64,000 nucleotides of DNA from Candidatus Nomurabacteria bacterium (GCA_023267375.1 JAHFNJ010000006.1:684-64683), one strand, 5' to 3'; counted from the first letter of the stretch, positions 9,738 through 34,607 are shown. A program made the numbers and translations. The notes: generated from the letters alone by a model not told the origin.

Positions 9738-11705
9738 TTAAACCCGCCAGACACCCTTAATAATGCCACTCGTTACCTGTACGGTGTCTGATGTGAATAC
9801 TTTTGTATATGAACCATCTTTTGGGTTCTTTTTCTCGATAGTAACAACATACCCACCATTTGGAATCAGGCAATAAAACTGACCTCTTTCTGTTGCAATC
9901 TTGCGGAGCACCTCATTACCTAAGGCTGCCGAATACACCCGAATAATGGCGTTTGCAAGAGGACGGCCGGTTGTTTTATCGACAATACTTCCTAGTTTTG
10001 AAAGTGACGGCCCTACTTCTTTCACAACAAGCATCACAATATAAATTGCAAAAATAAAAATATTGTATGGACGTGGAGCTGATAGAAAAGCAATAAGTGC
10101 CGTAATAAAACCAATCGAGAAAAGAATATCTGTTACTCGGGTCATAATAAAAGTTCGACGTGAGTAAAAATGCGTCAAGGACTGCTCCTGCTTCGCAAAT
10201 TCATTCCAACTAAAATTATTCGGATCCATTGGAATATTCTTGGTGATAACTTCTCCTTGCCTTTTTAACTCAAAATAATTACCAAAATATAAATCGAGAT
10301 AAATTTCATCCCGTGTAACATGCCCCAACAGGAGCGATGGGAATGAGTAGTCTGTTTTTTTTGCTCGAATCATATAGTACCCCGGTGGTGCCATAAACCC
10401 ATACCGACCATCAATATCAGTAATAGCGGTAGCAGCAACTTTCCCTGTTTTATCAACAAGTTCGAGAAATACCGGATCAAGTGGACGTTTTGTAACCGCA
10501 TCATATACAGTACCCCATGGTCGAGCGCGTTTTTTGAGACCTAAAGCAACCAAAAGAAGTGTCCAAATACGCAGCGGTAACAGAAAAATTTCTGAAAGAG
10601 AAAATGGTGTAGAAAATGCAATTGTCGCAATGGATCCAGCTGCTCCGAACACAAGCCCAGTCACCGCAATTGATTTTGAAATAGGATCTGCGTAAGGACT
10701 GCTGATCGTTTCTTTTATTTTAGAAATTGCTGTCTCAGTGATTGTTCCTAATTTTTTATCACAACTATTATCTGCTACACATTTTTCAATAACAACAACG
10801 GTGCGATAAACAGTAGCAGACAATGGGAGACTACTCCGGTCACTTACCGTATATTGTAATGTATACGTTCCAAGATTCTTCGTATCGACAACCCCTGTTT
10901 TTTTAATAAACAGTCTAAGATCACCATCTTCTGCATCAGTTGCTTGAGCACCTGGATCAGTAAAAATATCACCTTGAACTACCGTAATTTTGCTCTCCCC
11001 TAAAAGAGAGATCGAGGGAGGTGTATTTAATACATCTTGCGCTCGTATCACATTGATCGTGCGAATAACGCTTGCAGACAATCCTCCTTTGTCTGTTGCA
11101 GTATAAGTAATAGTATACGTACCGATAACAGCAGTATCTACTTTTTTACCACTTTTTTGGACAGAAAGAATACCATCTTCTACGTCTAATGCTGTCGCAC
11201 CCGGATCAACAAAGGGTTTTCCTTTTACGATAATAATAGGATTATCACCAAGAAGCGTAATATGGGGTGGTGTATTTTGTGGAAGCACAGAACTAACCGT
11301 CAACGAAATTGCAGCTGAAGTGCCAGTGTTCCCTGTGTTATCGATGGCTTTGGCAATAATTTTATAATCACCCTGAGCTAGAGCGTTAGTGTTCCAGTTA
11401 ACTGAATAATTACCAGTACTATCAGCGATATTGGTACTTCCAATAAAGTGCACAGTACTCCCCGTCTGATCTGGTTGAAAATAAAAATCAACTTTTTGTA
11501 TTCCATTAACATCTGTAGCAGAAGCTCTAACCAAAACACTGCCGTACACAACTGCCCCCTGGTTTGGTGAGATAACCGTAGTAATTGGTGGAGTTGCATC
11601 AACAACCGCAATTGAATAGTGAGCGGGAAGAGCAATTATAGAAACTAGTACTATAAAAAGTGCTCGAAAAAATATTCTATGGGGTGTGTTTACAAAAGAG
11701 AGCAT
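9738..11705 (-). CDS. secreted surface protein: signal peptide, Ig-like/DUF5011 domains, conserved C-terminal TM-hairpin/beta-sandwich anchor module
   Basis: Signal peptide MLSFVNTPHRIFFRALFIVLVSIIALPA and two DUF5011-like units (PPHITLLGDNPIIIVKGKPFVDPGATALDVEDG; PPSISLLGESKITVVQGDIFTDPGAQATDAEDG). The C-terminal ~270 aa are paralogous to the C-termini of the 25795-28206 and 28291-32502 genes. Confidence 0.6.
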   Translation of the reverse strand: MLSFVNTPHRIFFRALFIVLVSIIALPAHYSIAVVDATPPITTVISPNQGAVVYGSVLVRASATDVNGIQKVDFYFQPDQTGSTVHFIGSTNIADSTGNYSVNWNTNALAQGDYKIIAKAIDNTGNTGTSAAISLTVSSVLPQNTPPHITLLGDNPIIIVKGKPFVDPGATALDVEDGILSVQKSGKKVDTAVIGTYTITYTATDKGGLSASVIRTINVIRAQDVLNTPPSISLLGESKITVVQGDIFTDPGAQATDAEDGDLRLFIKKTGVVDTKNLGTYTLQYTVSDRSSLPLSATVYRTVVVIEKCVADNSCDKKLGTITETAISKIKETISSPYADPISKSIAVTGLVFGAAGSIATIAFSTPFSLSEIFLLPLRIWTLLLVALGLKKRARPWGTVYDAVTKRPLDPVFLELVDKTGKVAATAITDIDGRYGFMAPPGYYMIRAKKTDYSFPSLLLGHVTRDEIYLDLYFGNYFELKRQGEVITKNIPMDPNNFSWNEFAKQEQSLTHFYSRRTFIMTRVTDILFSIGFITALIAFLSAPRPYNIFIFAIYIVMLVVKEVGPSLSKLGSIVDKTTGRPLANAIIRVYSAALGNEVLRKIATERGQFYCLIPNGGYVVTIEKKNPKDGSYTKVFTSDTVQVTSGIIKGVWRV

Positions 11706-11815
11706 ACTAGAAAATGCTGTGGGATATTTTTAATTTGTACTAACGAAAATCCCTTTTCATAGTATACCAGAAAGCAAGGATGAACAGGGAGAATAGATTA
11801 TGTACTATTACGAAT

Positions 11816-14800
11816 TTAAGACTGTGAGATACTCTGCGCAAGGGCATCTGCGTATTCTTTTACTGAAGAAAGAGTAAAGAGTGATGGATTGATAGGAATA
11901 AAACCAATACTCGCACCATCATGGTTGGCACCGTAAACATACTGGGAACTTAAATCATACGCAGTATTCCAGAGTGAACCTCCGGTAGATTGAGATGTGA
12001 CAGAAATATTTAGAATATCATCATAAGTAACTTTCTTTGCCTGAGTAACATCTCCAGGGACCGAGAGGTATGCAATTTTTTCTGAACCCCCAACAGTTAT
12101 GTCATATATGGTGTTACTTGTAACTGAGGTGCCCCCAGAATTTTGAAGTGAAGTACTTCCACTTGAAGGATCAATTGCATAAATATAAAGGTCTCCACTA
12201 GAAGCCGTAAGGAGTGTGGCATTGCTTGGACTAGCATAGGCCGTAAATTCTTGGATTCGTGTATTGTCCTGATCTGTTACATACACGTGCCCAGAAGAAT
12301 CAATTGTGACACCATTTGAACCCCCTATTTGGCCATTACCTGTACCATATGTCCCAAACTGTGTAAGATACATACCTGCCGGACTGAATATTTCAATTCG
12401 ACTATTATTGTAGTCAGCAACATAGACATTCCCTGTAGTATCAGTTGTCATGTAACGAGCACTGGAAACACCAAACTGTCCTGCACCACTACCGCTAAGC
12501 CCAGCAAGACACGTCGCTGGCGCTACGCAGATTTCAAACTGACTGGCGCCAGTAGAAACTCCCCAGCCGAAAGTATAGAGAAACGCACCCGAAGAAGAAA
12601 ACTTCTGCACACGACGATCTTGTCCGCTGGTCACATAGACATTTCCATTAGAATCAACAGTAACATCCATTGGATTCCAGAATTGCCCACTACCATTGCC
12701 ATAAATACCCTTTTGACAAGTTGATGGAGGGCTACATGTTTCAAGCTGCGCGGTACCAGTGGCAACACCCCAGCCAAACATTGAGAGAAATGTTCCTGAA
12801 GAATTGAATAACTGTACCCTCTGGTTATCAGCATCAACAACGTAAATTGTATCTGCTGGTCCAACAGCAACACCCCTAACACTACCGAATTGCCCGTTTC
12901 CAATACCAGGTGTTCCCCATTGGAAAAGGAAATTTCCCGAAGAATCAAATTTTTCGACACGAGTTAAATCACCAACATACAGATTACCCTGAGAATCGAC
13001 ATCGAAATAACTAGGTGAATTAAATTGACCAGGGCCATTCCCGGGAATCCCCGCACGACACGTCGCTGGCGCTACGCAGATTTCAAACTGACTGGCGCCA
13101 GTAGAAACTCCCCAGCCGAACATACGGAGGAAAGTCCCGTCCGAACTAAATTTCTCAATGCGAGCGCCTGATAAATCTGCAACATATATGTTGTTTGATG
13201 AATCAATCGCAATATCATATGGGTTTGTAAACTGCCCATTCCCAGTACCATCTGATCCCCATTTATTCAAGAATGTTGGTGTTGCGGGAGGAAGTGATGC
13301 TCCTTGAGAAACATCAAGCGCTGTTACCGCATTCCCAAGCCGTGTAGCGGCACTGAAAGATCCAGAAGAAAACGGAATTGCAAATAAACCTGTATTGGAA
13401 GATATGTACGCATATCCAGCATTTGCGGTGGTAGTATATACAGCCAGATCATCTCCAATAGTAGTGATATTTGTTTCTTGGCTAATAACAGGAGGAATAG
13501 TTGGCGCAAATATTGGATTACTATTTTTTACAAGCAATACCAGTCCACCAAATGCACCATCTGATACTGCAACAATAATTTGCCCAGAACTACCGACCCA
13601 TACAGCATTACCTCGTAGTGTGCCAATAGGACGAACAAGGTTGCCAACATTCATAGTCCAAGCAGCAAAAGGATTATCTGGTATTGAAATATCAAAGGCC
13701 TGAATTCCAGCAGAAGGATTAGTTGATGTTACATACGCTATGGTACCATCGACAAATAAATCTGTAGCCGCCCCCGCAATACTAACGTAATTTGGACTCT
13801 TACTAGGTACTGCAGGATTACTTACATCATAGACCTCCAATCTGCCATTTGCAGTAATCATGTACGCATACCCATTACCAGGAGCAACTGTCTTAATACC
13901 ACCGGACTGTAAAACAATAGCTGTCGTAAACGAGAGAATAGCGCCACAATTAGTACCAGTACTATTTGTTGCACATGCTTGGAATTCATAATTAGTACCT
14001 GCTGTTAAACCTCCTGATACTGATTGAGAAAAGGTTCCCGGTGCAAGGTACGTACCTGCAGTAACAATGTTTATAAGATTCCCGGGAGTTCCCCACTTAA
14101 AGAATACATCTGCAGAAACATCATTTACTGCATCGAGTATACCGTTGAGTGTCACCGCACTCTGTCCAATATTGGTAGCAGTATCTGTTGTAACCTCAGG
14201 AGCTACTGCCACAACCGTATCAGTTGTGAATGAAATGATATCCCCACAAACTTGTGCCGGCACCCCAGAGGCACCTTCAGCACATGCGCGATAATAATAT
14301 GTAGTATTTTGAGTTAAACCATTTATGTCAGCATTGAATTCTCCTTGGGCACTTATGTTTGTTGTATTGAGTGGCGTCTGTGTGGCAGATGCAAGTCCTG
14401 GATCTATACTATACTCCATCCATGTATTTGTTTGATTACTCCCCCAAGAAAAACCACTGATAATTTTCCCTGTCAGAAAAGCAGAGGTTGCATCATGAGT
14501 CATTTGGTAACCGGCAGGATTTGTTTCAACAACAGGCGCAGCACTTGGCGCGAATGAATACGGCCTACCATTTGTGAGAGCTGACCCAAACATATAATTT
14601 ACTGTTGGATCATATACGAGTCCCGTCATTTCAAACGAAAGATTTCGAGAAGCAAATGTTGTGAGATTTGATGAATCGGTAAAATCTGTTTCGTATAAAG
14701 TACCTGTTTGTCCACTATCTGGAATAAAAGTATATACAATATTTTTATTCCCCTGACGAGCAATCGCAATGTCTGGTGTCACTCCACAACACCCACCACT

Positions 14801-17800
14801 ATTAGCAAATTGATAGATACTCTTGTTAGTCAACTGATCAGCTACATTTGGTTGAGCAACATCAACAGTAGCGACAGCTAGTTGGTTCCCACTATACACC
14901 CCGACAAGATTAAATACATTAGTACTTTGATCATAATAGAGAGCCATTGATCCATTCTGAGGTAAATTACTCCCTGAAGGAATCACAAATGGGCTCATAC
15001 TTCCTCCGGCAGAAAAATCATACGGAATAATAATGAATCCTTTTTCATATGTCGACAAGTAAATATACCCACTCGTATCATCTTGATAGACAGCCATACC
15101 AGAAATAACACCAAGATCTGTTTCCGAAACCTGTCGTAATACTGGGTTCCACGAAGCATCACCATCGATCATAAAGACTGCTCCATTTGATGTAGTCTGA
15201 GAACTATCTGATACCGCAAGTAAAATATTCCCTCTTGCATCTGCGTAAACATTTTTTCCAGTAAGGAATGTATTACCACTAATTGCCGCGTCAAATGTTC
15301 CCATTACAACAGGATTGGTTTTAGTAGCCACATCAACAATAGCAAGTTCAGCTTGTGCATTATCAGAAATCACATACACAGTATTATCAACTACGTATAA
15401 ATCAATCGGCTGCACATCAGTATACAAACCAGGAAGACGGACTACACCAATTGGTTGTGGTGGAGCAAAGTTCGGGCTCGTTGAATCAAAGAGTGCGGGA
15501 TTAGTTATATCGTACACTTCAAGTGTATTTCCTGTAGTAATCATGTACAGATAGTTACCATCACTGGAGGTCCTTACCTTGACCCCTCCAGGAACAAGCA
15601 AGTTCACACCGCGTGTCGTTATATCGTTATTTGTTGTATCAGTAAAGTTAACTGTTGCTGCCCAATCAGCTGGTAATGTATCTGTAATGGTATTACCTAT
15701 ACCAAACTCTGTGTCATCAATGTACGTACGAACAAGGATTGATCCATTTGCAGGAATTGATCCGGTAAACGGACCTTTACCGATCTGACACTGAGCAATG
15801 GAATCATCTTTAACGGTAATTGAGCACGTAACCGTATTTGAGAAGATGTCCACTAACCCTAATTTAGAATCACGTGCGCGAACTGAGAATGTATAGATGC
15901 CTTTCTTTGTTGGAATATTATTAGGAGCAACAGAAATCTGTCCTTGCGTACCAGACGCAGTTATTGTTGATCCAAGTCCATCTGGTAACGCCCCAGAAAC
16001 GATACTAAAGGAAACAGTACTGCCAGATCGAGAACCTGATGTTGTTAGATTTTCTGTTCCATATACTGTTCCAACAATACCATCAGGCATAAGCAAAGCT
16101 GGGCAAGAAAGGGTGAACGACTGTTTTGGAGGAAGAATTGTTACTGTACGAGTTGCTGTGGCAGTGAGTGGATTTCCTGTATCAACACCAGTATCAGTTT
16201 TCCCTGAATCAGTCACACTGTAGGTAATAGTGTACACACCAATAACGTTGGTATCTATAAACGGCACTACTGTTCCGTTACCGTTAGTAATAACAGTAAT
16301 TAAGTTAAGGGGTATTCCCAAAAGTGCATCTTGAACATCGGTCGCAATAGCTCCAGGGTCAACAAATGTACCTACTTTCTTGGTAATGGTGACATTTTTT
16401 AATCCTGTCCCTGAATCTGGAGTAACAGTAATAACAGGAGGGGTATTGGTACCTGCGGGAGGAACCACGTTTACCGTACGAGCGATTGGATCTGCTGGAG
16501 TATTACATGAATCAAAGAAAGTGTAGCCAATGGTATATGTATCAACAACATTAGTATCAAGAGATGGAATAATTGTCCCTGAACCATTCCTAATAAAAAT
16601 ATTAGTTGTTGGTGGAATAATTGGGGAACTATTTCCTTTAGCATCGACGCCAACTGCACCAAGTTCTGTATAAGTACCGCCCTTAACAATTGTTATTGAA
16701 CTACTGCCATTGAGACTAATAGTTGGGGGATTTGCAAGAGGACAATTTCCGCCACCTGAATCAATTTGAATACTATATGTTTCCGAATTAGAATAATACA
16801 CATGAGATGCATCAACCGTCAAAACTGCACGAATAACAATACCTGTATACGCACCTGCTACTGTTGGCAAACCATTAATACCACTTGAATCTGTTGCAAC
16901 AATTGGTACTGAAGAGCGAAGATTTCCAATAGTATTTGGGAGAATGCCTGGTGGTAAGGTGCCTGAAACTAATTCGAATGAAACTGTACCAGCAGTATTT
17001 ACTGTTGTTACTAAAGATGCATCGTATGCGGTACTAAGTACTCCATCATGGAGTGGTCCAGTTGGTGTATCCAATGTAATCGCTGGGATAATAGTAATAC
17101 TACACATCTGTCCACCACCACCAGCCCCACCAATTCCACCACCACCATTTGAGATAGTGACCGTAACAGGCGAGGATGTGGTTGTATGTGAATCTGCATC
17201 ATAGGCAACAGCCGTAAGAATATAATCTCCGTCAAAAAGAACCGTTGTATCCCAGCTTACTGAGTATGTTCCTCCTGAACCTACGGTATCAGTACCGATA
17301 AGATTTGATCCGCGATAAAATTCAACCTTTGTAACACCGTTATCATCGGTTGCAGTTGCAGTAATTGTAATAATTCCTGAAACAGTCGATCCGTTTGTTG
17401 GAGAAGTAATTGTAACACTTGGACCGCAATTGCTTCCGCCGTCAGTAATAATCCAGCCATCACTACTAATCATATTTGCACGCTGCGAGGCAGACTGACA
17501 GTATTTACTGAAACCCCCACTAAACAAAACGTTTGATTTTAAGGAAAGCAGATCCCAGCCAGCCAGCAGTGCGTCGTAATTTGCGATAGAAAGGGTGTCG
17601 CCAGTGAACATACCGTCTGCAGTTGTCACTACGGCAACATCCCAACCGCCAATGTTTTGGTTGAACGCAGTATCATTGGCAAACATGAATGACATGTCAG
17701 TCACCTTTGAGGTATCCCAACCACCTATGTTTTGGTTGAAGGAGGTGGCGCCCGAGAACATTGCGTGCATCGTCGTCACTTCTCCAGTATCCCAACCACC

Positions 17801-20800
17801 GATGTTTTGATTGAAAGCAGGAGCACTATGGAACGTATGATCCATGGTCGTCACCTTTGAGGTATCCCAACCACCGATGTTTTGATTGAAGGAGGTGGCG
17901 CCATCAAACGTCGAAAGCATGTTTGTGACCTTTGAGGTATCCCAGCCTACGAGACTACTATTGAAAGAGGAAGCGCCCAAAAATGTCCCTTCCAGTGTCT
18001 GCACTTCTCCAGTATCCCAGCCACTGATGTTTTGGTTGAAGGAGGTGGCATTGGCAAACGTGTAGGCCATGTTGACTACTTTCAAAGGATCCCAAGCACC
18101 AATGTCTTGATTGAAAGAAGTAGCACCCGAGAACATCGCGAGCATCGATGTCACTTCTCTCACGTCCCAGCCGCCGATGTTTCGATTGAAGGAAGTGGCA
18201 CTATGGAACATGTGGCTCATGTCAGCAACCTTCTCTACGTTCCACGTAGTTATATCTCCATTGAACGAAGTAGCGCTAAAGAACATCCCGGACGTTGTTA
18301 TAACTTTTGAGACATCCCATAAATTTAGTGGTTGATTAAATGAAGATGCTCCCTCAAACATACTACTCATACTAGTTACATTTCCGACATTCCAAGAATT
18401 GAGAGGTTGATTGAAAGCAGCGGCTAAGGCAAATGTACTATTCATACTAGTCACATTCGAAACATCCCAAGAATTGAGTGGCTGATTGAAAATAGTTGCA
18501 CCAGAGAACAGCGATGTCATATCTGTCACATTTGATACGTCCCACGAATTGAGCGACTGATTGAGTGAAGTGGCATTTTGGAACATATGACTCATGTCTG
18601 TTACTTGTGAAAGATCGGGTGTGTCAGTTGCGTTAATCTCAACATTGCTACAACCCTGGAAAGCACCTCCCATAGAATTCCATACTTGCGGACCCCACTG
18701 TTTAACAGAAAGAAGTTTGTCTTTATCTACGCTATTACCAAAAACAATACGCGGAAATGTTCCCGTAATCGAAATGGTATGCACACCTGGAGATGTATAC
18801 GCATGAGTGATATTTCCGGTAATACCAGTGCCGGTGGAACCATCTCCCCAATCAATATCATAGTTGAAAACTCCTCCACCAGTTGGGATAGTAATTGTTT
18901 CTCCACCTGATGTTGTTTGCCATGTAGTAATAAAAGCATCACAGAGCGGAGCTTTCCCTCCATCAGTGATGGTCCACCCATCACTGCTTATCATGTTTGC
19001 GCGCTGTGGTTCTGATTGACAGTAGAGACTCAGTCCCCCACTAAATAGTACGTTTGATTGCAGTGAAAGGAGATCCCAACCAGCAAGCAAGGCATCATAG
19101 TTTGCCGTTGAGAGTGTGTCTCCAGTAAACATACCGTCTGCGTTAGTAACATTGCCAACATCCCATCCGCCGATATCCTGATCAAAAGAAGTAGCATAGG
19201 CAAACATTTGCTCCATTGTTGTCACGTGTGACACATCCCACCCCCCGATAGGTTGATTGAAAGAAGACGCATAGGAAAACATATAGAGCATTTGGGTAAC
19301 TCGTGAAATTTTTGCATCCCAATCAAGTGGCACCCCTCCATTATTGAAAGCTGTCGCGCCATAAAACATGTTATGCATATTAATAGTATTCGAAGAATTA
19401 CTATTAAAAGTCCACTCACTTATATCTTGATCAAAAGCCACAGCCTGTTGGAACATCTGGCTTAAATCAATATTGATACTAGAAAGATTTCCTCCGAGAA
19501 TAGTCCATGTAGCAATCGGCTGATTAAAATGAGTAGCGCTTTGGAACATAATGCTGAAGTCGGTAACTTTTCCTACATTCCAATCAAGAGGTCTATTCTC
19601 GTTATTCCCAGTATCACCATTATTGAAAACTGTCGCGCCATAAAACATTCCCTGCATATTCGTCACATTTGAAACATTCCAGTTACTGATATCTTGGTTG
19701 AAGGATGTTGCACCACTGAACATGTACAACGACTGAACAACATTGGAGAATTTATTATCCCAACTTAGCGGCTTACTACCATTGTTGCCGGTATCGCCAT
19801 TGTTAAAGGACGTTGCACCATAAAATGTGTTGTGCATATTTGTCACACTCGAAATATCCCAGGCAGTGAGTTCCTGATTGAAAGCTATCGCCTGCTGGAA
19901 CATCAAACTCATGTCTTGTACGCTTGAAACATCCCACCCCTCGATAGGCTGATTGAAACTAGCAGCACCGTAAAACATAGCGCTCATATCGGTAACAGTC
20001 CCCACATTCCATCCGCCGATAGGTTGATTGAATACTGATGCACTTTGAAACATTCCCTGCATTGTACTTACACTTGATACATTCCAATTAGCAATAGGCT
20101 GATTGAACGACGTAGCATACGCAAACATATACAACATGCGCGTGACATTTGAAAGTTTGTTATCCCAATCAAGCGGCTGCCCGCCGTTATTGAAAGCAGT
20201 CGCACCATAGAACATGTTCTGCATATTTGTGACATTCGAAACATCCCAATCACTAATATCGGTATTCATAGACGTAGCACCTTGAAACATGATACTCATA
20301 TCTTCCACTGAGGTTAAAACAGGATTACCTGCCGAAGCACTTATTGTAAGATTACTACATCCACGAAAAGCTTCAGTGAAGGTATCCCACTCTTGCCTTC
20401 CCCACTCTTCAACTGAAAGAATTTTATCTTTGTTTAAAATTGAAGGAAAACTATTATCCTTTATGTTGCTATTTGCAAAATAAATTGCAGGAAAATCACC
20501 ATTAATCGAAACAGTGTGTATCCCAGCGGTTGCGTATGTATGCGAAGGATTTGCACTACTCCCAGTGGTAGCGGCAGTGCCGTCTCCCCAATCGATATAG
20601 TAGTTATAGCTATACCCGCCATTTGTTGGAATGGTAATTGATTCCCCGTTGTTTGTCGTTTGCCAAGTGGTAACAAATGCGCCACAGAGCGGGTCTTCTC
20701 CGCCATCAACAAATTCATTTGTGTAATAAGGAGGTGAATACCACTGATACGTATCGCGGAGTATTGTTCGTTGTGTAGCAGAGGTACAATACATACTTGT

Positions 20801-22867: not shown

Positions 22868-22884
22868 GGATTATATAATGTTGA

Positions 22885-25782
22885 TCAATAATAGAAATAA
22901 AATACTTCAGATCCGGTATCAAACGTGGTGACCGCTCGTATAACAATATCTAGGAAGTCGCCAGCAGTTGAAGGTATTCCAGAAATTTCACCTGTGTCAG
23001 GATCTAAAGTCAGGCCATCAGGTAATATTCCCGAGACAACTTCAAAGGTAGTTGTTCCTTGAGCGGTATTTTGAGCAACAAGCGTCTTACTATATGGAGT
23101 ACCTTGAATGCCAGGATCACAGGTGAATGGTTCAAGATACACAAAATCATACATCATTACACGATTATTCGATCTATCCACAACATAAAGACGGTTGTTG
23201 TCTGGATCTACCGCCATCTGTGTTGGTATCGCAAGCGTATCTTGGTCGGGATCAGTGAGTCCCATGTTTGGATCGCTTGAATCAAAATCAAGTTGCCCTA
23301 AAATAGCGTGGGCATCCTGACCGTTCACAAATGCTGTCGTACTAAAAACAGACACGCGATTATTTACTGTATCGGCGACATATAAAGTTCTACCACTAAC
23401 CGCAAGACCAATAGGGCCCGAGAGTCCTGCCTGACTTGTCGTAGCAGCATCATTCGTAAACGCACTCGCATTTGGTTGACCAAGTTCATTTGCCGCAGAC
23501 ATTGCTACACCATGATCCCCTTTTGCTCCCAATGTATTGTCATCAATCAATGTTTTATCAAAAATCATCACACGATTATTTGCTGTATCAGCAATATACA
23601 CATGATCAGTATCAGTAGTAATTCCTCGAGGAGCAGAGAGTCCTGAGATACTGGTCGTTGCAGTACTGCCATTATAATCCGCTTGCCCAAAAACGTACGT
23701 CGCGCTTTCCCCATTAGCAGCAATAGTACCTGAAAATCCGAGTACACGATTATTGTCAGTATCAGCTACGTACAGGATGTTGCCATCTTCATCAAAGAAC
23801 AGGCCACTTGGACCAGAGAGTCCAGTAACACTCGTATCAGGGTCACTTGAAGAAGTATCTGCCTGCCCAACAACATATGAAGCAGCCATACCGTCAGTAA
23901 TAGTTGCAGTACTATATACGAGGATACGATTATTTCCTGCGTCTGAGACAAAAAGACGGTCAGTCATAGAATCATAGGCCAATCCTTGAGGACCTGACAG
24001 AGCATCGGCCCCAACAGGAGCACCACGATTTGCAGTGGTATCTTCAAAGTTTATTTGGCCGAGTACATTGTCAGCAAAGTGGTCGTACGTTCCACTGTCA
24101 GTAATTGTATTTGTTGTCGGGTCAAGATAGAACACAAGTACACGATTGTTATTTGTATCAGAAATAAAGAGACGATGGTGCACGGTATCTATCGCAACAC
24201 CACTTGAAGCACTTCCTGCACCAAGATCAAAACCTGCATTATTTACATACCCAGACTTGGTATTTATATCAGGCTGACTCCAAACCACAGGAATATGAAT
24301 AGGATTCGTTGTGATGTACTGCCCTACTTCGTGAACAGCATATTTATTAGCATCTTTAAAAACATAATCAGGGCTACCACTATCCATATCAAACATCATA
24401 AGTCTATTATTTTGACCATCAAGCAAGTAGAGATACTTGGTCGATGCTTCAAAAACAATCTCTCCGAAGGTTAGGAATGATGCTTGGTTAGTAGGATTGG
24501 TTGCTCCTGTCGTAAAATCTGGCTGGCCAATAACACTCGTTGCAGTTTTATAGTCATTGGTAGCACCACTCATATCAGTGACATTAAATGTTAGTACTCG
24601 ATGGTTACTCGCATCAAAAACATAGAGCGAGGATGTTGCACTATCAAACGAAACACCATTTGGCCCCTGCAAACCTGTGGCAGACTGACCTACTTGATCT
24701 TGGGGATCAACCCCATTCCAGTTAAGAAATCGACTATCAAGATCTGGTTGGCCAATAACGCATGATGCATCCATCATACTAGCAAGACCCTGAGTAACCG
24801 TATTGCATAATGTTTCGTCAGGAAGCGGATTCAGTATTGGATCAGGATTAAAATTTGGTCGTACATCATACATAACGACACGATTATTTCCGTTATCGGC
24901 AATGTAAAGACGCTCATGGGAAGGAGTAAGATCAAGAGAAAGGCTCTCTGGTGTATCAAACTTATGCGGAGCAACACCCTGTCTATCAACATCATTAGGA
25001 TCATTTAAAACGCAAGTAATCGGAGCAATCGTAACCCCAGAAGAAAGTCCTGTTGTACTGACACCACAGAGCGTACGTGCAGAAGAAGGATTACCACCGT
25101 CTGTTCGAACATCAAAAACATTAATAACATGGTTACCAGAGTCACTCACATAGAGAAGATAATTGTTTGTATCAAGTGCCATACCATAACTATTACCATA
25201 TGCTTGTGTCCTATACAGCGGAGCTGGGTTGTCATATGTCTGACTATTTATTTTTGTTGACAGATCAGCTGTATCAAAAATACTAACAGTTCCACCACCA
25301 TAGTTTGCAACGTACAGATAATTTGTAACTGGATCAAACACAAGAGCTTCAGGTATATTTATCGCTCCACCAGACCCCTGAGAAGTAAAATCACTTGCTC
25401 CGAACACATACGCAGCATGTGGATCAGTGAGTGTTTTGTTGTTGTTGTTGTCCAGCTGAAAAACAAGCACTCGATTGTTGTCAGAATCAGAAGCAAAAAG
25501 GTAATGTCTTACGGTATCGATAGCAACACCAGCACCAGCACCATAGGTTGTAAGGGCGAAACCTAAGTCATTGATCGTTCCTAAACTATCAGGACTATTA
25601 TTTTTTCCAGCCTGCTCAAACGATTCTTCAAAATTTGTGCCGACCGTAAGCTGCCCAACAGCATCTGCTGCCAAATATCCTCCTGAAGTCGCACGTGTCA
25701 CCAACAACACCGTTATCGTGATGTAGAAAAGTGCAGCAGCGGCAAGTATGAGATGATAGGTTTTACGATTTTTATACAGCAT
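22885..25782 (-). CDS. secreted NHL-repeat beta-propeller protein with C-terminal He_PIG-like Ig domain
   Basis: Signal anchor, then at least 10 NHL-type repeats (LYVSDSGNHVINVFDV, RLYIADNGNNRVVMYDV, LYVADTVNNRVSVFS ...). The C-terminus (TTFEVVSGILPDGLTLDPDTGEISG) is typical of the putative Ig (He_PIG) domain. Confidence 0.65.
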   Translation of the reverse strand: MLYKNRKTYHLILAAAALFYITITVLLVTRATSGGYLAADAVGQLTVGTNFEESFEQAGKNNSPDSLGTINDLGFALTTYGAGAGVAIDTVRHYLFASDSDNNRVLVFQLDNNNNKTLTDPHAAYVFGASDFTSQGSGGAINIPEALVFDPVTNYLYVANYGGGTVSIFDTADLSTKINSQTYDNPAPLYRTQAYGNSYGMALDTNNYLLYVSDSGNHVINVFDVRTDGGNPSSARTLCGVSTTGLSSGVTIAPITCVLNDPNDVDRQGVAPHKFDTPESLSLDLTPSHERLYIADNGNNRVVMYDVRPNFNPDPILNPLPDETLCNTVTQGLASMMDASCVIGQPDLDSRFLNWNGVDPQDQVGQSATGLQGPNGVSFDSATSSLYVFDASNHRVLTFNVTDMSGATNDYKTATSVIGQPDFTTGATNPTNQASFLTFGEIVFEASTKYLYLLDGQNNRLMMFDMDSGSPDYVFKDANKYAVHEVGQYITTNPIHIPVVWSQPDINTKSGYVNNAGFDLGAGSASSGVAIDTVHHRLFISDTNNNRVLVFYLDPTTNTITDSGTYDHFADNVLGQINFEDTTANRGAPVGADALSGPQGLAYDSMTDRLFVSDAGNNRILVYSTATITDGMAASYVVGQADTSSSDPDTSVTGLSGPSGLFFDEDGNILYVADTDNNRVLGFSGTIAANGESATYVFGQADYNGSTATTSISGLSAPRGITTDTDHVYIADTANNRVMIFDKTLIDDNTLGAKGDHGVAMSAANELGQPNASAFTNDAATTSQAGLSGPIGLAVSGRTLYVADTVNNRVSVFSTTAFVNGQDAHAILGQLDFDSSDPNMGLTDPDQDTLAIPTQMAVDPDNNRLYVVDRSNNRVMMYDFVYLEPFTCDPGIQGTPYSKTLVAQNTAQGTTTFEVVSGILPDGLTLDPDTGEISGIPSTAGDFLDIVIRAVTTFDTGSEVFYFYY

Positions 25783-25794
25783 ATGCGTTGGTTA

Positions 25795-28206
25795 TTACTT
25801 TGATTTGATTACTTTGTTTGTTAATGGATCATCTACTTTCCAGACACCGTTGATTCGTTCGTTCTTCACAACAACTTTTGGTGATGTCAGTAACCGTGTA
25901 TAGGTACCATTTGGATTTTTCTTTTCAATTGCAATGAAGTATTCACCGTTTGGGATCAAGCAGTAGAAACGCCCATACTCAGTTGTGATTTTTCGCACTA
26001 CTTCATTACCAAGCGATGCAGAGTAGACACGAACAACAGCGTATGCGAGCGGTCGGCCAGTTTTTTTATCAATCACCGTGCCCAATTTTGAGAGTGAAAT
26101 ACCCATTTCGCGAATAATCAAAATCGCAATGTATACACCAAGGATAACGATATTCCAAGTGTTTGGCAAAATGATGAACGCGAGAACAGAGATGATAAGA
26201 CCTAAGATAAAGAGAACATCTGCACTTCTTGAAAGGAACTTTGAATTCTTCGAAAGCAGTTTTGCAATCCGTTCTTCGTGTTTTTCAAAATCCTGTTGAT
26301 CAAAGTGCTCACGATCAAGCGGAATATTCATTGTAATGAGCTGCTCATGTTTTTTCAATTCAAAGTAATTACCGAAGTAGAGATGGTCATACATTTCATC
26401 CCGTGTTACATGTGCAAGAACAATTGATGGAAATACGTAGTGTGCAAAGCGTGGGCGAATCATATAGGTTCCAGGTGGTACCAGGAAACCATAGCGTCCT
26501 TGGCTATCAGTAATTGATGTAGCAACTTGTTTACCTTCTTGATCGACAAGTTCAAGGAACACTGGATCAAGCGGTTTTTTTGTAACCGAGTCATACACAA
26601 TACCCCAGGTTGGCTCTTTTCTTTTTACAATACCAAAGAGTAATAACACAAGCGACCAGAGACGCAGGTTCGGCATTGTCATGGCAAATGCGATTGCTGT
26701 CACAAGAGCACCAGTTGCCAATCCAACAACCTGAATTGCTTTTACCGCATTATTCTCATTCAAAAAATTCTGTCCATCGTCAATCCCGTCGTCGACTCCT
26801 TTCGTGCAAGGCAAAATAGTACAGATTGTTGGGTCTATCGTAAATGAAAGAATGTTTTCACAACTTTCACCGAAACTATTTTTTGCAAAGGCACTGTAGT
26901 AATACGTACCAGGATCGAGCGTTGAAATATTTTCTGAAAAATTACCTGTAGTATTCATTGTACGTGTGGCTAGTGGCACCGTACTATTTAAAGAATTACG
27001 ACTCTTGCCAAACCTAAAATAAATTGAAACAACAGGATCACCGAGGCTAGTAACAACACCATTTAAAGTGGCTGAGTCTACGGTTACAGCCGTTGCTCCT
27101 CGAGTAGTAACTACAGGACTCCCGTCGTTTGAGCAATCTATTATAGGAGGACCCACATCCTCTTTACACAAACCAGTTCCTATCCCGTCAGGAATCAAAC
27201 CTGTTGGACAGGCGGTCGTAAAATTAAGAACCACTCCACACCCCGTCTTTTTTGATTGATCATCTGCACATGCTTTAAAGAAATACGTAGTGTTCTTTAC
27301 TAAATTTGACATAGTAACTCTAAATGCCGAGTTTCCCTGTGTCCCTGGAATGTCGAGTGCTGAATCTTTGTTTAGCGAAAGTGGGCTCAGACCAATCCAA
27401 AAATATGTATGGTAACAATCTCCAGTACTACACTTTGGTCCGACCACCGCACCATTAACCGTCGCAATAGTAACACCTACCGCAGTCGCATCATTTGTGA
27501 CAACTACCGGTTTATTATTAGGAGGATTACTACCACAAGTTCTTGGTGTTGCAAATGTTACCCAGTCACCGTAAAAAGTTCCTGAACCATTTTCAGTAGC
27601 AATACGATATATATATGTTGTATTCAATGTAGCCCCACTTCCAAGTGAAAAAGATACTGTTTGGTTCCCAGATAAAGCGGAAAGATTTGTTACCCCAAAT
27701 GGACCAGTAGGATTGCCATTCTTGTCTTGTATCTCAAACCACGCAGTAGCAACACTACCCTCTGTATCAACGGTACCATGGAACGTTGTCGAGGAAACAG
27801 GACAACTATTATCCGCAGAATTTGTGACAGGAGCGAGTGGAACATTGGTTATCGCAGAACAGATTTGTAGACCAACCCATGAGTCAGAAGTTTCAACACT
27901 ATAATCAATCGGAGCTGCATCATTGTTGGTAAAAAGATAATCTTGTGTCCCATTTGTCACCACATTACTCCCTGTATCTTGAGACATGAGACCATATATG
28001 TTATCGAGTGGAGTAACTGTACTTGTCCCAGCCGCATGGACAATTTTGCCAGAAAGATCTTTTAGAGAAAATGGACCAACAGAAAAAGCATCAACAGGAG
28101 CGGGAAACGCGATGAAAAATGCGAGCGCAATAAGAGCAAAGAAAGAAAAACGTATACCGCTTCTTTGTATGATTTCTTGTAACGATGTCATAGTAATACA
28201 CCTCAA
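25795..28206 (-). CDS. secreted surface protein with Ig/FN3-like domains and conserved C-terminal TM-hairpin/beta-sandwich anchor module
   Basis: Signal peptide and a Thr/Ser/Asn-rich beta-rich extracellular region. The C-terminal module (WGIVYDSVTKKPLDPVFLELVDQEGKQVATSITDSQGRYGF...) is paralogous to those at 9738-10560 and 28291-29110. Confidence 0.6.
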   Translation of the reverse strand: MRCITMTSLQEIIQRSGIRFSFFALIALAFFIAFPAPVDAFSVGPFSLKDLSGKIVHAAGTSTVTPLDNIYGLMSQDTGSNVVTNGTQDYLFTNNDAAPIDYSVETSDSWVGLQICSAITNVPLAPVTNSADNSCPVSSTTFHGTVDTEGSVATAWFEIQDKNGNPTGPFGVTNLSALSGNQTVSFSLGSGATLNTTYIYRIATENGSGTFYGDWVTFATPRTCGSNPPNNKPVVVTNDATAVGVTIATVNGAVVGPKCSTGDCYHTYFWIGLSPLSLNKDSALDIPGTQGNSAFRVTMSNLVKNTTYFFKACADDQSKKTGCGVVLNFTTACPTGLIPDGIGTGLCKEDVGPPIIDCSNDGSPVVTTRGATAVTVDSATLNGVVTSLGDPVVSIYFRFGKSRNSLNSTVPLATRTMNTTGNFSENISTLDPGTYYYSAFAKNSFGESCENILSFTIDPTICTILPCTKGVDDGIDDGQNFLNENNAVKAIQVVGLATGALVTAIAFAMTMPNLRLWSLVLLLFGIVKRKEPTWGIVYDSVTKKPLDPVFLELVDQEGKQVATSITDSQGRYGFLVPPGTYMIRPRFAHYVFPSIVLAHVTRDEMYDHLYFGNYFELKKHEQLITMNIPLDREHFDQQDFEKHEERIAKLLSKNSKFLSRSADVLFILGLIISVLAFIILPNTWNIVILGVYIAILIIREMGISLSKLGTVIDKKTGRPLAYAVVRVYSASLGNEVVRKITTEYGRFYCLIPNGEYFIAIEKKNPNGTYTRLLTSPKVVVKNERINGVWKVDDPLTNKVIKSK

Positions 28207-28290
28207 GCCTCTGCTTTATTTTTTAGTACACTACAAGTATACAACGCGCAAAAGCATTTGCCTACCTTTTCTTGTGTATTTCAGAGAAAA

Positions 28291-31200
28291 CTACACTTTC
28301 CATTCACCTTTAATAATCCCCTTCTTTACCTCTATTTTTTGGGAAGTGAAAATTCTGACATAACCACCCTCTGGGGACTTCTTTTCAATCGTAACTATAT
28401 ATGAGCCATTTGGCACAAGACAATAGAACTGTCCATATTCATTTGCGACCTTATGAATAACTTCATTACTAAGGGTTGCTGAATAAACACGGATAATAGT
28501 ATATGGAATTGGGCGTCCCGTTTTTTTATCGACAACAGTACCAAGCTTGGCGAGAGATATACCAACCTCCTTCACAACAAGCAATACTATATAGAGCCCA
28601 AGTGTGATGATCGTGAGTGTTGTTGGGTGTGTGATAAACGTAATGATGGCCAAGATAAAACCAGCGGCAAAAAGAATATTCGCAATACGATTAAGCCAAA
28701 TAATACGGCGTGAATACATTGTTGCAAACCCCTGCTCTTTCTTTTCAAATTCATTCCAATCGAAACGTACAGGATCGAGGGGAATATTTTTTGTAATTAC
28801 TTCTCCTTCTTTTTTTATTTCGAAATAATTGCCAAAATAAAGATTGTCATAAATTTCATCGCGAGTCACGTGACCTAAAATAATTGACGGAAATACATAA
28901 TTTGTTTTCTTGGCACGAATCATATACATTCCCGGCGGCACCAAGAAACCGTAACGACCGTTAATGTCTGAAATAGCAGTGGCAACTTGCTTTCCATCTT
29001 GATCAATAAGCTCAAGATATACGGGATCAAGTGGACGCTTTGTTGCCGCGTCATATACCACGCCCCACGGTGCTCGTTTTCTAAAACCAAAGAATGAAAG
29101 TAGTAACGACCAGAGGTGTGACGGAAAGAGAGAAGAAACAAGACCAGCAAGAAGACCTGCCGCTGCCACTACCTGAGCCGTTGCAGCTACGTAAATATTA
29201 TTTGTAAGATCACAGAGATGCTGCATCCCCAACCCAATGCTCCCCGAGAATAATGAGGCTACTGCACATTTTTGACCTTCATCTTTTGGTGGAAGTGGAG
29301 GAGGTGGTGGCAGAGTATTTATTTTGATTGCATATGATTCATACACGGTGCTCTTTGTATCGAAAGCACGAACTGAAAAATGATACGTCCCTTCTTTGGT
29401 AGGAACACCCGAAAGTATCCCTGATAAAGAATCTAGTGTAATTCCTGGCGGTAGTATTCCTGAAAAGAGGCCAAAAGAAACGACACCTTTGGCATTTTGG
29501 GTGGTGAGCGTTTGCGGTATATATGTCGCAGACACCATACCGTCAGGAAGTGTTGCGGGGTTTAATATAAAAACAGGGCCACCATTACAAGGAAGAATGT
29601 CACAACCTTTATTGGTTACATACAAATTATAAAGTTGCGTATCAGTTGCACTAAGAGCATCAACAGCTTGGATAACAAATTGGTAGTGACATTTTGGATA
29701 ACCAGAGCAAGTTGGATCTTCAGCTGTTGTCCCATGGAGTATGCCGTACTTGTTATTATTTTTATCAGTTTCCAGAGAAAGACCTTCTGGGAGATCCCCT
29801 GAAAGAATCGAAAAAGTAACTGGACCACTAGACGCTGCGCTTTCTGTTGCAATTAATTGAGTATATGGTTTTTCTACATCAGTATCTTTTATGTGGGTCG
29901 TCGTTATATGAAAGATATCAGGAACGATTTGTGCTGTATGAAAAAGGACTGGGGAACCAACAGCTGTCTGCCCTTTCCCTTCTGCGTATGCACAATACAC
30001 ATAATCAGTATCTGGAAGAAGATTAGTGATACTTGTTGCAAAGATACCATACTTAGACCATGGCAAATGAACTGTTTCAGAAGATCCATTTGGTGGACAC
30101 GAAGAATTATTTGCGGATTGATAGTAAGAAAACCACACACGTGGAGAAAGAGTTGCCCCAGAAATGAGCGCTCCTTGAAGAATTGCTCCTTTTCCAGAAA
30201 CATCGGGAATTCCCCCTTTTGTTTCAACAATCAGAACCTCATCCTGCTGATGACAGCTATTGCAAATGGTAACACTACTCGTATCAGAAACTTGTCCACC
30301 ATTATAAAATGCAGTTGCTTCAATTGTATACGTACCATCCGGAACCCCTACTGTATTCCAGTTCACCGAGTAATCATTCCCAGAAACAGTATATGTATCA
30401 GTAATTTGTCCGTTTTGTGAACCTGTATATGAAAATGAAACACTTGTAATCGTTTTACTCTTCGGTGTTACCTGTGCAGCAACAGAAACAAAACTAGAAA
30501 CCTTCGCCCCATTTGATGGAGTGGTGATCTGTATTGTGGGAGTCGTAGAACTGCAACACGTAGACGGCTTTGTAATCGTAATCGGATATGTGTGGGTAGT
30601 TGTACGGAACACTGCTGTCGGCGGTGATGGCAACGGCTGGAATCTATCCATTCCAAAAACTGTCATATTGTATGTGCAGGGATACCCTCCACTACAATTA
30701 ACTGGATCATCTATTGGGGTCCCCGAAAGAAGACCCTGTGTTGGAAACATCGGGTCTGTAACAAAAGTAAGGCCAGCCGGGACATTTGTTGTAAAAAAAA
30801 GTACAGTACCTTGGCTCCCTGATGTATAAATTGGCTGACTGTATGCTGTGCTAATTTTCCCTGAAGGCAACGATGCAGTAATGATATCGATAAAATTGTA
30901 AATCATGATACGGTGCGGTTCAATATCAATCGTATACAACCGAGATGACGACGCATCGATCGTTATCCCATAGGGCACACTAAATTTTTTATCACTCGTG
31001 CCCGCTGTTTGATTGAAAAAATCAGGCTGTCCAAGCACCGCTTCAGCATCGATTGCTCCACAAAAAGAAGGGATCGTCGCGAGTGTGTTGTACACAAGAA
31101 TTCTCCCAGCAACTTCATCGGATACAAACAAGCGATTATGGATGGCGTCATATTCAATAGCACGTGGCGTCCACATCTTACACTGAGAAACCCCAGGAGT

Positions 31201-32502
31201 ACCTGATAGAACATCTGCTTGCCCAAATGGCAACCATGAGCCCGGAGAATATACAGTATTGCCGGTACTCAAACTTATGTTCCACCTCATAACACGAGAA
31301 TTGCCTGCATCAGAAACATACAAGGTACCATTAATAACCCCCGGGAAAGATGCGCTCGCTTCAAATGCAACATCCCATGGATTTTTGAGAAGATACCCAG
31401 TAGTACCATTATCCCCTTTAGTAAAATCATCATGAGTAGTCGGGTATGAAGCATCGCCTCCCAAAACCCACGAAGCATCAATTCCTAATCCACCGTTATC
31501 AAAAGGCGTAAACCCTCGCGCCTTTGCATTAAGTGTTGCTGTACTTACATCAAAAACAAGTACGCGATGATTATGTAATTCGGTCACAAAAAGAATATTA
31601 TTTTCTTCGTTGTATTCAAGACCTTCTGGTTCATCAAAACCTTCCGCAATAGGATTCGCTGCACCAGCATTGGCAACATTACTTGTAAAATTTGGCTGTC
31701 CTAAAACATACAGTGCATCCTCTCCATTTGTAATAGTGCTTACATCAAAAACAAGTACGCGATGACTACGCGTGTCCGAAACAAAGAGTCGATTATTGAA
31801 ACCATCATATGCAAGTCCTCCGATATCGCCCCCAAGAGTACCTGCAGGGTTAACATTATGAGTAATGTCCTTAAAGTTATCACTCCCCAGCACGTAGTCA
31901 GCAACATGATCAAAAGTACCAGTATCAGGAATATTATTATTGCCATCTAGATTAAACACGAGCACCCGATGATTATTATCATCCGAAACGAACAATCGAT
32001 GATGGACTGTATCTATGGCGAGTGTTTGCGGAGAATTAAAACCAACATCATTCGGAAAAGCTGCGGTACTATTTGGGGAACTGACACCCTGTGTCCAGTT
32101 CAAAGTACTCATATCAAAGGTATACGTGAGATCAGAGGTTGCTGTCGCAATCGGATTGAGTAATGTATCAGTAATGGTCTCACCATTAATAAATGCAATT
32201 GAGCCAATTGGCTGAATAGAGAGCGTGGATCCGTTATCAGCAGAGACAACCCCTGTCGCATTGCTTGAACTTCCTTGTATTGATTGACCAACAGAAAATG
32301 TTGGGGCTCCAAGCAAGGTGTAATTTATATGTCCTGTTGGTTCGAATTGTCCCAACATATCAGATGCTCGATAAGAATCTCCTGTTGCCTTTGCAGTTAA
32401 GATAAAAGCGCTCGTAATAAAAAGCATCGCCAGTACGATCGTGAGCGCATGATATATTTTGCGATATTTATAAAGCATATAAGTCGTCTTTGACGTGTAC
32501 AC
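28291..32502 (-). CDS. secreted NHL-repeat surface protein (1,403 aa) with He_PIG/Ig-like domains and conserved C-terminal anchor module
   Basis: Signal anchor, NHL repeats (RLFVSDDNNHRVLVFNL, RLFVSDTRSHRVLVFDV, ILFVTELHNHRVLVFDV ...) and He_PIG-like segments. A PPPPPLPP linker precedes the same C-terminal module as the other two paralogs. Confidence 0.65.
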   Translation of the reverse strand: MYTSKTTYMLYKYRKIYHALTIVLAMLFITSAFILTAKATGDSYRASDMLGQFEPTGHINYTLLGAPTFSVGQSIQGSSSNATGVVSADNGSTLSIQPIGSIAFINGETITDTLLNPIATATSDLTYTFDMSTLNWTQGVSSPNSTAAFPNDVGFNSPQTLAIDTVHHRLFVSDDNNHRVLVFNLDGNNNIPDTGTFDHVADYVLGSDNFKDITHNVNPAGTLGGDIGGLAYDGFNNRLFVSDTRSHRVLVFDVSTITNGEDALYVLGQPNFTSNVANAGAANPIAEGFDEPEGLEYNEENNILFVTELHNHRVLVFDVSTATLNAKARGFTPFDNGGLGIDASWVLGGDASYPTTHDDFTKGDNGTTGYLLKNPWDVAFEASASFPGVINGTLYVSDAGNSRVMRWNISLSTGNTVYSPGSWLPFGQADVLSGTPGVSQCKMWTPRAIEYDAIHNRLFVSDEVAGRILVYNTLATIPSFCGAIDAEAVLGQPDFFNQTAGTSDKKFSVPYGITIDASSSRLYTIDIEPHRIMIYNFIDIITASLPSGKISTAYSQPIYTSGSQGTVLFFTTNVPAGLTFVTDPMFPTQGLLSGTPIDDPVNCSGGYPCTYNMTVFGMDRFQPLPSPPTAVFRTTTHTYPITITKPSTCCSSTTPTIQITTPSNGAKVSSFVSVAAQVTPKSKTITSVSFSYTGSQNGQITDTYTVSGNDYSVNWNTVGVPDGTYTIEATAFYNGGQVSDTSSVTICNSCHQQDEVLIVETKGGIPDVSGKGAILQGALISGATLSPRVWFSYYQSANNSSCPPNGSSETVHLPWSKYGIFATSITNLLPDTDYVYCAYAEGKGQTAVGSPVLFHTAQIVPDIFHITTTHIKDTDVEKPYTQLIATESAASSGPVTFSILSGDLPEGLSLETDKNNNKYGILHGTTAEDPTCSGYPKCHYQFVIQAVDALSATDTQLYNLYVTNKGCDILPCNGGPVFILNPATLPDGMVSATYIPQTLTTQNAKGVVSFGLFSGILPPGITLDSLSGILSGVPTKEGTYHFSVRAFDTKSTVYESYAIKINTLPPPPPLPPKDEGQKCAVASLFSGSIGLGMQHLCDLTNNIYVAATAQVVAAAGLLAGLVSSLFPSHLWSLLLSFFGFRKRAPWGVVYDAATKRPLDPVYLELIDQDGKQVATAISDINGRYGFLVPPGMYMIRAKKTNYVFPSIILGHVTRDEIYDNLYFGNYFEIKKEGEVITKNIPLDPVRFDWNEFEKKEQGFATMYSRRIIWLNRIANILFAAGFILAIITFITHPTTLTIITLGLYIVLLVVKEVGISLAKLGTVVDKKTGRPIPYTIIRVYSATLSNEVIHKVANEYGQFYCLVPNGSYIVTIEKKSPEGGYVRIFTSQKIEVKKGIIKGEWKV

Positions 32503-32597
32503 TATATATAGTATAGCAAGAAAAAATGACTATTTACCACTAAAAACAGAAACGCTTACATTTATTATCCATAAGGTCATACTTATTCAGTCATTAT

Positions 32598-34292: not shown

Positions 34293-34295
34293 AGG

Positions 34296-34580: not shown

Positions 34581-34607
34581 ATATCTATTATATGTATCTT
34601 AGTTAAA

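Follow-up and report, generated by a model that had tools for sequence, protein, structure and literature searches.

Most Paceibacteria and Parcubacteria are uncultured, and their way of attaching to hosts or to other surfaces is not known. Paralogous, domain-shuffled, and strain-variable surface-protein loci have already been described in reduced genomes. The predator Vampirococcus lugosii and the methanogen-attached Paceibacteria, both with reduced genomes and both in the Candidate Phyla Radiation (CPR), encode large membrane-associated proteins of PKD, FN3, beta-propeller, and adhesion type, and their Ig-like/PKD surface proteins, which in the Paceibacteria are secreted and strongly expressed, and giant membrane proteins were proposed to be factors for attachment to the host (PMC8080830, PMC10936435). 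The ten longest proteins of Vampirococcus have 1392 to 4163 aa (PMC8080830), and in the Firmicute Apilactobacillus kunkeei, five consecutive genes (Giant1-5) encode extracellular proteins of 3000 to 8000 aa and occupy a sizeable share of a small genome (PMC12863079). The locus analyzed here lies at positions 9738-32502 of a 64,000-nucleotide stretch of a Candidatus Nomurabacteria bacterium (GCA_023267375.1, JAHFNJ010000006.1:684-64683; the whole stretch is called the window below). It consists of five consecutive minus-strand genes, from upstream to downstream g1403, g803, g965, g3683, and g655. They encode paralogous mosaic proteins of the cell envelope, and the array is genuine and intact; the genome is that of an ultra-small bacterium of Paceibacteria type (CPR/Patescibacteria). 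The array is a clear example of the loci described above, and what it adds to them is a conserved, undescribed C-terminal anchor module with its possible cytoplasmic domains.

Compared with the genes of Vampirococcus and of the methanogen-attached Paceibacteria, which belong to other lineages, have other domain sets, and for which the corresponding papers report no shared C-terminal anchor module, the array in the window is one contiguous paralogous set. The likeness to Giant1-5, whose sequences and anchoring are unrelated, is an analogy only. The five proteins also differ from the LPXTG-anchored MSCRAMM adhesins and pilins with CnaB/SdrD-B stalks, as they have no LPXTG or sortase-type C-terminal signal: the 80 C-terminal residues of all five contain no LPXTG-like motif with a hydrophobic tail, and no protein shows a lipobox cysteine in a plausible position. 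Unlike the LPXTG proteins, the module is anchored by integral membrane helices that flank beta-sandwiches, and these sandwiches may be cytoplasmic.

The listing of open reading frames (ORFs) returned five intact genes with exactly the sizes, order, and coordinates given in a first-pass annotation of this DNA (Table 1). Together they encode 7509 aa, with about 99% of the 22,765 bp coding, and occupy 35.6% of the window; the intergenic gaps, from g1403 to g655, measure 84, 12, 17, and 110 nt. Such an investment had been described as much larger than a small-genome organism would lead one to expect, a view that appears overstated, since giant surface-protein sets are already documented in reduced genomes. 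Each protein carries one N-terminal hydrophobic segment, in agreement with the signal or anchor assigned to all five. The true start of g1403 is likely M9 at 32478 and that of g803 is likely M6 at 28191, giving proteins of 1395 and 798 aa, the same lengths as in the gene calls of other assemblies; from these positions, both N-termini read as normal signal sequences. The array is flanked by housekeeping genes, with mrdA (PBP2) and an rpoD-like sigma factor gene upstream and greA, lysS, and an mraZ-mraW-ftsI-mur block downstream, and no difference in GC content was observed between the array and its flanks.

Giant ORFs of this kind might be assembly artefacts, either chimeras or collapsed repeats. 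In favor of this, g3683 is repetitive with a period of 75 nt, one metagenome assembly breaks within g965, and related genes in other metagenome-assembled genomes (MAGs) contain N-runs inside repeats. However, the internal repeat copies of g3683 are only 60-80% identical in DNA, and their assembly is thus unambiguous, without collapse. A 25.4-kb MEGAHIT contig from ENA, corresponding to window positions 1816-24654, matches all nucleotides of g3683 and g655 (100% identity), and another contig from this assembly covers 24027-44292 with 2 mismatches. A Logan contig of 16.2 kb (22598-38805), also with 2 mismatches, bridges g1403, g803, g965, and the start of g3683. The MEGAHIT break inside g965 coincides with a strain-variant patch and not with a repeat, the assemblies being 100% identical elsewhere, and all five frames remain open for 655 to 3683 codons in DNA of 41% GC. 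Judged from these assemblies, which together span the entire locus and carry the same ORFs, an artefactual origin is hardly credible. A smaller variant patch, with 8 differences between assemblies, was seen in lysS (8755-8848).

Two sources of variation were considered and rejected. Genes similar to g1403 in three other loci (L002, L008, and L009) shift frame, as expected for phase variation or frameshifting, but every shift falls at an N-run, that is, at masked sequence or a scaffold gap. These N-runs (L002 ~9500-9600, L008 ~8317-8410, and L009 ~3321-3330) mimic frameshifts and call for caution when "split" versions are counted. The array itself contains only two homopolymer tracts of at least 8 nt. 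Targeted hypervariation of the patch in g965 was rejected as well: the 69 nucleotide changes produce only 21 amino acid changes, and the patch looks like an ordinary divergent allele or recombination patch.

Table 1. Coordinates of the array genes, their modules and repeats, and the promoter-like motifs in the window.
Feature	Window position	Strand	Description
g1403	28291..32502	-	1403-aa ORF; signal/anchor, NHL beta-propeller region, Big_7, He_PIG-like domain, C-terminal anchor module
g803	25795..28206	-	803-aa ORF; signal peptide (…PVDA/FS), orphan FN3-like ectodomain, C-terminal anchor module
g965	22885..25782	-	965 aa; signal/anchor, two NHL-type beta-propeller regions, terminal He_PIG; no anchor module
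g3683	11816..22867	-	3683-aa giant protein; three PKD-like + PARCEL/DUF285 super-repeats, then Ig-like/FN3-like/NHL part
g655	9738..11705	-	655 aa; signal/anchor, Big_7, two Bact_surface_Ig-like domains, C-terminal anchor module
Anchor module of g1403 (residues 1105-1403)	28294..29190	-	Hydrophobic helices, RKR, beta-sandwich 1, long helix + TM (transmembrane) hairpin, beta-sandwich 2
Anchor module of g803 (residue 489 to end)	25798..26742	-	Sequence comparison, family profile
Anchor module of g655 (residues 344-655)	9741..10676	-	Commonest form of the family, with 'SLSEIFLLPLR' segment
Strain-variable patch in g965 (residues 382-577)	24054..24640	-	~590 bp; assemblies differ at 69 nt and 21 aa
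PARCEL/DUF285 25-residue arrays of g3683	17606..22351	-	Blocks at residues 173-657 (19 repeats), 816-1247 (15), and 1420-1754 (14)
NHL beta-propeller, g3683 C-terminus	12068..13270	-	Residues ~3200-3600
TGCTATACT, extended -10-like motif upstream of g1403	32510..32518	-	Consensus match only
TGGTATACT, extended -10-like motif upstream of g655	11761..11769	-	Consensus match only
TGTATACT, similar -10-like motif	84-nt gap before g803	-	Consensus match only

NHL, DUF285, PKD, Bact_surface_Ig-like, He_PIG, and Big_7 were all present in the Pfam scan of the five proteins. The families named in the first-pass annotation (NHL, DUF285, PKD-like, Ig-like, and He_PIG) were thus confirmed by Pfam/NCBIfam, and CarboxypepD_reg and an FN3-like Pur_ac_phosph_N domain were found beyond that list. 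The same building blocks recur along the array, He_PIG, Big_7, and NHL each being found in three of the five proteins. By all-against-all BLASTP, the NHL propellers of g1403 and g965 are 33% identical over 493 aa, and g965 is a paralogue of the g1403 ectodomain that stops at He_PIG, the domain that in g1403 immediately precedes the anchor module. Paralogy likewise links the g655 ectodomain to g3683 residues 1816-2245, and the FN3-like region of g803 matches g3683 residues 2774-2983. In a search of 5.8 billion proteins, the g803 ectodomain was an orphan, recovering only itself and weak FN3 matches. The ectodomains of g1403, g803, and g655 have 11-18% charged residues, 34-41% Ser+Thr+Asn+Gly, and a pI of 4.1-5.1. 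Elsewhere in the window (50290-51465, minus strand), a small surface protein of 391 aa combines PG_binding_1, Big_7, and InlB B-repeat domains; such peptidoglycan-binding domains were singled out among the expressed proteins of Paceibacteria (PMC10936435).

The NHL matches exceed the Pfam cut-off of 20 bits in g965 (132.6 bits), g1403 (52.2), and g3683 (69.1). Since g965 exceeds the Pfam cut-offs of SGL (83 bits), Arylesterase (65 bits), and Lactonase (48 bits) as well, the propeller proteins could be exo-enzymes of the lactonase, arylesterase, or strictosidine-synthase-like type that attack the host envelope or scavenge nutrients, with the Ig-like and PARCEL parts as carriers, and extracellular enzymes of Paceibacteria were reported to be highly expressed during parasitism (PMC10936435). 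However, these three matches overlap the same NHL blades and reflect the fold, the NHL model scores highest in g965 (133 bits), and the PDB sequence matches of the g965 and g3683 propellers are TRIM71, NHLRC2, and SOQ1, which are non-enzymatic NHL propellers. Pfam/NCBIfam scans of the five proteins detected no hydrolase, peptidase, toxin, or secretion-system domain. An enzymatic role of the propellers thus appears improbable.

The proteins had been annotated as secreted, but g1403, g803, and g655 are integral to the membrane through a C-terminal module that was then missed. The terminal ~300 aa of g1403, g803, and g655 are 51-60% identical, with a mean column identity of 69%. In the AlphaFold2 model of the g1403 module (99-sequence alignment; predicted local distance difference test (pLDDT) 87.9, predicted template-modeling score (pTM) 0.74), hydrophobic helices are followed by a basic cluster, KKR (97-98% conserved), by PWG, and by a first, transthyretin-like beta-sandwich; a long helix then leads into a transmembrane hairpin with a 3-residue loop, and a second beta-sandwich ends the module. 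The model of g655 shows the same order (pLDDT 79), with helices of 27 and 18 residues ahead of sandwich 1, and the modules of g1403 and g803 are short-form variants without the 9-residue 'PFSLSEIFL' segment. All three score 363-424 bits against the family profile, whose underlying alignment contained these same copies, and the match ends 0-9 residues from the C-terminus. No solved structure matched the whole module (best whole-query TM-score 0.24). The g1403, g803, and g655 proteins are predicted to be held in the membrane by this conserved C-terminal multi-helix module.

A word-indexed search with the module gave 141 matches, with E-values down to ~1e-57 among the 120 listed; the few names among those listed read 'hypothetical' or 'carboxypeptidase-like regulatory domain-containing protein'. 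When 1.84 billion representative proteins (clusters at 50% identity) were searched with the profile, 7214, 4227, and 2450 of them passed E-value limits of 1e-3, 1e-10, and 1e-30, respectively, and a scan of 185,579 GTDB species-representative genomes yielded 553 confirmed module stretches. The record titles of these relatives are almost all of Paceibacteria, Nomurabacteria, or Parcubacteria type, and the closest come from Nomurabacteria, Paceibacteria/Paceibacterota, Parcubacteria, Taylorbacteria, Wolfebacteria, and Minisyncoccia records and from TPA (third-party annotation) MAGs titled 'uncultured Saccharibacteria'. The best module identity among the species representatives is 55%, showing that the source species is not among them. 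Literature searches found no published description of the module, and by these searches it is a large, lineage-restricted, and uncharacterized family that may mark the surface proteins of the Paceibacteria-type lineage. The modules of g1403, g803, and g655 belong, over their full length, to this Paceibacteria family with the carboxypeptidase-like annotation.

In every one of the 79 loci fetched, the module forms the extreme C-terminus of the ORFs, and the same holds for almost all of the 150 best representatives; ORFs uncut by a contig end are ~460-2940 aa long (stop-to-stop). A g1403-like architecture, NHL propellers followed by the module, recurs elsewhere in proteins of 1388-2021 aa, and other ectodomains consist of VWA with SdrD_B, of Big_12 repeats, or of unannotated sequence. 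Several genomes have more than one copy, some of them adjoining (L001, L007, L009, L032, and L057), and one of these (L001, GCA_034680565.1) contains a cluster similar to that of the window, with an NHL+module protein, a protein of 1847 aa, a 902-aa protein with the module, and an Ig-like+module protein.

Clustering of neighboring ORFs revealed a "core" copy of 570-700 aa in about 38 of the 79 loci (e.g., L010 7341-10840 and L067 250-2742). It belongs to a block with the order RNase H, ComEC, SOD (opposite strand), MBL, a small Peptidase_M50, the module gene, rpsL, rpsG, and fusA, in which the Peptidase_M50 gene, whose product carries HExxH and LDG motifs, lies directly upstream of the module gene. 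This proximity to a site-2-protease-type gene is only a lead. By contrast, the copies in the window are mutually adjacent and have other ectodomains; phmmer found no M50, ComEC, or MBL homologue in the window, and there was no ribosomal-protein gene among the window ORFs scanned. The three copies in the window are thus additional paralogues, and a core copy may lie elsewhere in the source genome. Two further neighbors of module genes were observed. A protein of 635 aa, which recurs next to many module genes (26 loci; L062 4247-6151), in the core block sometimes between the module gene and rpsL, has a hydrophobic segment at its N-terminus, Gly/Asn/Thr-rich 'NTAVG'-like repeats, and no Pfam match, and in L002 the module gene is followed by a gene for an Rce1-like CPBP intramembrane protease.

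Taken together, we consider it reasonably probable that the locus is a mosaic surface-protein array with a shared membrane anchor module and a role in binding. Each protein would be exported through its N-terminal signal or anchor and would display an acidic ectodomain with a high content of Ser, Thr, Asn, and Gly, put together from one common set of parts, namely NHL propellers, PARCEL/DUF285 solenoids, and Ig-like spacers (Big_7, He_PIG, PKD, and FN3-like). The lineage-specific ~300-aa module would tether g1403, g803, and g655 to the cytoplasmic membrane as a common anchor presenting interchangeable ectodomains, and g965 and g3683, which have no module, would be either held by an uncleaved N-terminal anchor or released. 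The ectodomains would bind a partner surface, be it a host cell, prey, a particle, or a substrate, and binding to another surface is, judging from the domains, the most likely role of the array. The surface or attachment role suggested in the first-pass annotation thus remains the most reasonable reading of the domains and fits the proposals made for other CPR bacteria (PMC8080830, PMC10936435). Two points weigh against this explanation: adhesion is deduced from domain types alone, and with two of the five proteins devoid of the module, the surface retention of g965 and g3683 is left unexplained. Alternatively, the proteins could build a structural envelope or S-layer-type coat, serving for protection or spacing and not as specific adhesins, with the module as a membrane stalk like SlaB of the Sulfolobus S-layer. 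However, the match to SlaB spans one domain only, Pfam scans of the five proteins found no SLH or known S-layer domain, and the ectodomains linked to the module vary extremely among genomes (NHL, VWA, Big_12, FN3, and orphan), a trait that fits binding proteins better than a lattice-forming coat. We regard such a coat as unlikely.

The topology of the module was also analyzed, and both beta-sandwiches are rather likely to be cytoplasmic. The conserved basic residues are all found on the side of the domains (KKR following helix H-b, YSRR..R ahead of H-c, and K/R following H-d), and the opposite-side loops 'NPLSFSE' and 'PxxYN' have no conserved basic residues, so that cytoplasmic sandwiches would satisfy the positive-inside rule. 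About two-thirds of 300 family members show the pattern [E/D]-x6-[R/K]-x11-KKR, with no more than 11 uncharged residues between the conserved Arg and KKR, and it is in this region that g1403 and g803 are 9 residues shorter. In the variants of L007 and L009, the order is TM, KRLARGK, 10 hydrophobic residues, and KRRER, and that segment cannot cross the membrane twice. The composition of the sandwiches resembles that of cytoplasmic proteins of the organism (21-28% charged residues and 16-31% Ser+Thr+Asn+Gly), and their pI is 8.8-9.9 in five of the six domains, domain 1 of g803 being at 5.8. An external C-terminal domain of 90 residues would need translocation of the tail past the last helix. Against a cytoplasmic location, sandwiches of the transthyretin/CnaB/CarboxypepD_reg type are usually extracytoplasmic, and the two hydrophobic helices ahead of sandwich 1 in the commonest family members (27 and 18 residues in the g655 model) could form a hairpin, which argues for extracellular sandwiches. 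If both conserved transthyretin-like domains were cytoplasmic, the module might act as a transmembrane coupling device, for integrin-like outside-in coupling or clustering, possibly controlled by proteolysis, an idea that we hold only as a speculative one. Control of the link by intramembrane proteolysis is conceivable because the core member lies directly downstream of the M50 gene in about half of the loci.

The largest protein, g3683, is by its repeats a PARCEL/DUF285 ('BspA family') protein. It comprises at least 48 tandem repeats of 25 residues each, with the consensus ADATSFNQDISGWDVSNVTNMDGMF, and these pass the curated cut-offs (in brackets) of PF03382 (1334.7 bits [25], 16 stretches), TIGR02167 (450.6 [30]), and NF045896 (822 [500]). 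The signal/anchor, whose hydrophobic segment spans residues 5-33, is followed by three units of a PKD-like domain with a PARCEL/DUF285 array, by Big_7, a He_PIG-like domain, two Ig-like domains, a second He_PIG-like domain, ~430 unannotated residues, an FN3-like domain, and the C-terminal NHL propeller. PARCELs, described by Roske et al. (2010), are a variable surface-protein family that owes its name to the dyad symmetry of its repeat-coding DNA (PMC2996958), and g3683 resembles these proteins (NCBI 'BspA family leucine-rich repeat surface protein', PMC2996958) in its tandem repeats and may share their N-terminal membrane-targeting sequence. The PKD-plus-PARCEL architecture of its N-terminal third is common elsewhere (7930 matches); among the best 120 matches, the organism names given are all Bacteroidota, with 31-48% identity and at most 1325 aa. 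Compared with these listed relatives, g3683 is about three times longer and differs in its triple super-repeat and its Ig-like/FN3/NHL C-terminal half. Mycoplasma PARCEL lipoproteins have a lipobox and many Bacteroidota relatives carry the Por_Secre_tail of the type IX secretion system (T9SS), whereas g3683 has no lipobox, LPXTG motif, or anchor module, and Por_Secre_tail (PF18962) is absent from its Pfam results. There is no Cys within its first 45 residues, and g3683 is therefore not a lipoprotein. PARCEL dyad symmetry was sought at g3683 and rejected as not detectable: there were no inverted repeats of at least 30 nt within 400 nt, the weight matrix of the 75-nt repeat scored 0.324 against its own reverse complement (null 0.311 ± 0.010; reached by 90 of 1000 permutations), and the antisense translation of the repeats gave no repeat matches.

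The five genes had been described as a co-directional operon, but about 47 of the ~52 genes of the window lie on the minus strand, so that co-direction carries no weight. Moreover, a TG-TATACT-type extended -10-like motif is present in each of the three longer gaps, which measure 84, 95, and 110 nt. Co-transcription of g803, g965, and g3683 is likely because they are separated by gaps of only 12 and 17 nt, and there are probably up to three transcription units: g1403 alone, g803 with g965 and g3683, and g655 alone. Against this division, TGNTATACT occurs three times in the window, two of them here, a count not above chance (reached by 27 of 100 shuffles), and a generic promoter and terminator scan of the array was uninformative.

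Other features of the window were also recorded. Adjoining minus-strand genes at 37157-40093 encode a FAD/NAD-binding oxidoreductase (530 aa), ApbE, and an FMN_bind protein; nearby is a gene for a sigma factor of ECF type (41154-41768), and gene calling on the corresponding ENA contig placed a cupredoxin-domain gene (164 aa) at ~41842-42336. These genes may form a small membrane redox module. The region ~54000-62000, in which the GC content falls to 0.33-0.35, is a probable integrated mobile element. It contains a tRNA-Gln gene (55610-55683, plus strand), the gene for an unusual LexA-Dcm fusion of 528 aa that joins a LexA DNA-binding domain, Peptidase_S24, and a C-5 cytosine DNA methyltransferase (56353-57939, minus strand), a large serine recombinase gene (58011-59357, minus strand), an N6/N4 DNA methylase gene (60677-61972, minus strand), and a LOOT RNA (RF03000, 81.6 bits) at 59501-59620 on the plus strand. 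The LOOT motif occurs in the OD1, OP11, and TM7 lineages, and this match, together with the Paceibacteria-, Nomurabacteria-, and Parcubacteria-type titles of the module relatives, supports a CPR origin.

Conserved and easily recognized, the module occurs across the lineage in fusion with hundreds of distinct adhesin-like ectodomains and provides a sequence handle for listing the candidate surface proteins of any genome in this lineage. It also helps to choose ectodomains for binding studies and lets one ask whether binding at the surface is coupled to the cytoplasm. If the module were indeed a coupling device, it would define the surface-protein repertoire of Paceibacteria and represent a new type of bacterial surface-protein anchor, in which interchangeable host-binding ectodomains would be wired to a common intracellular partner.

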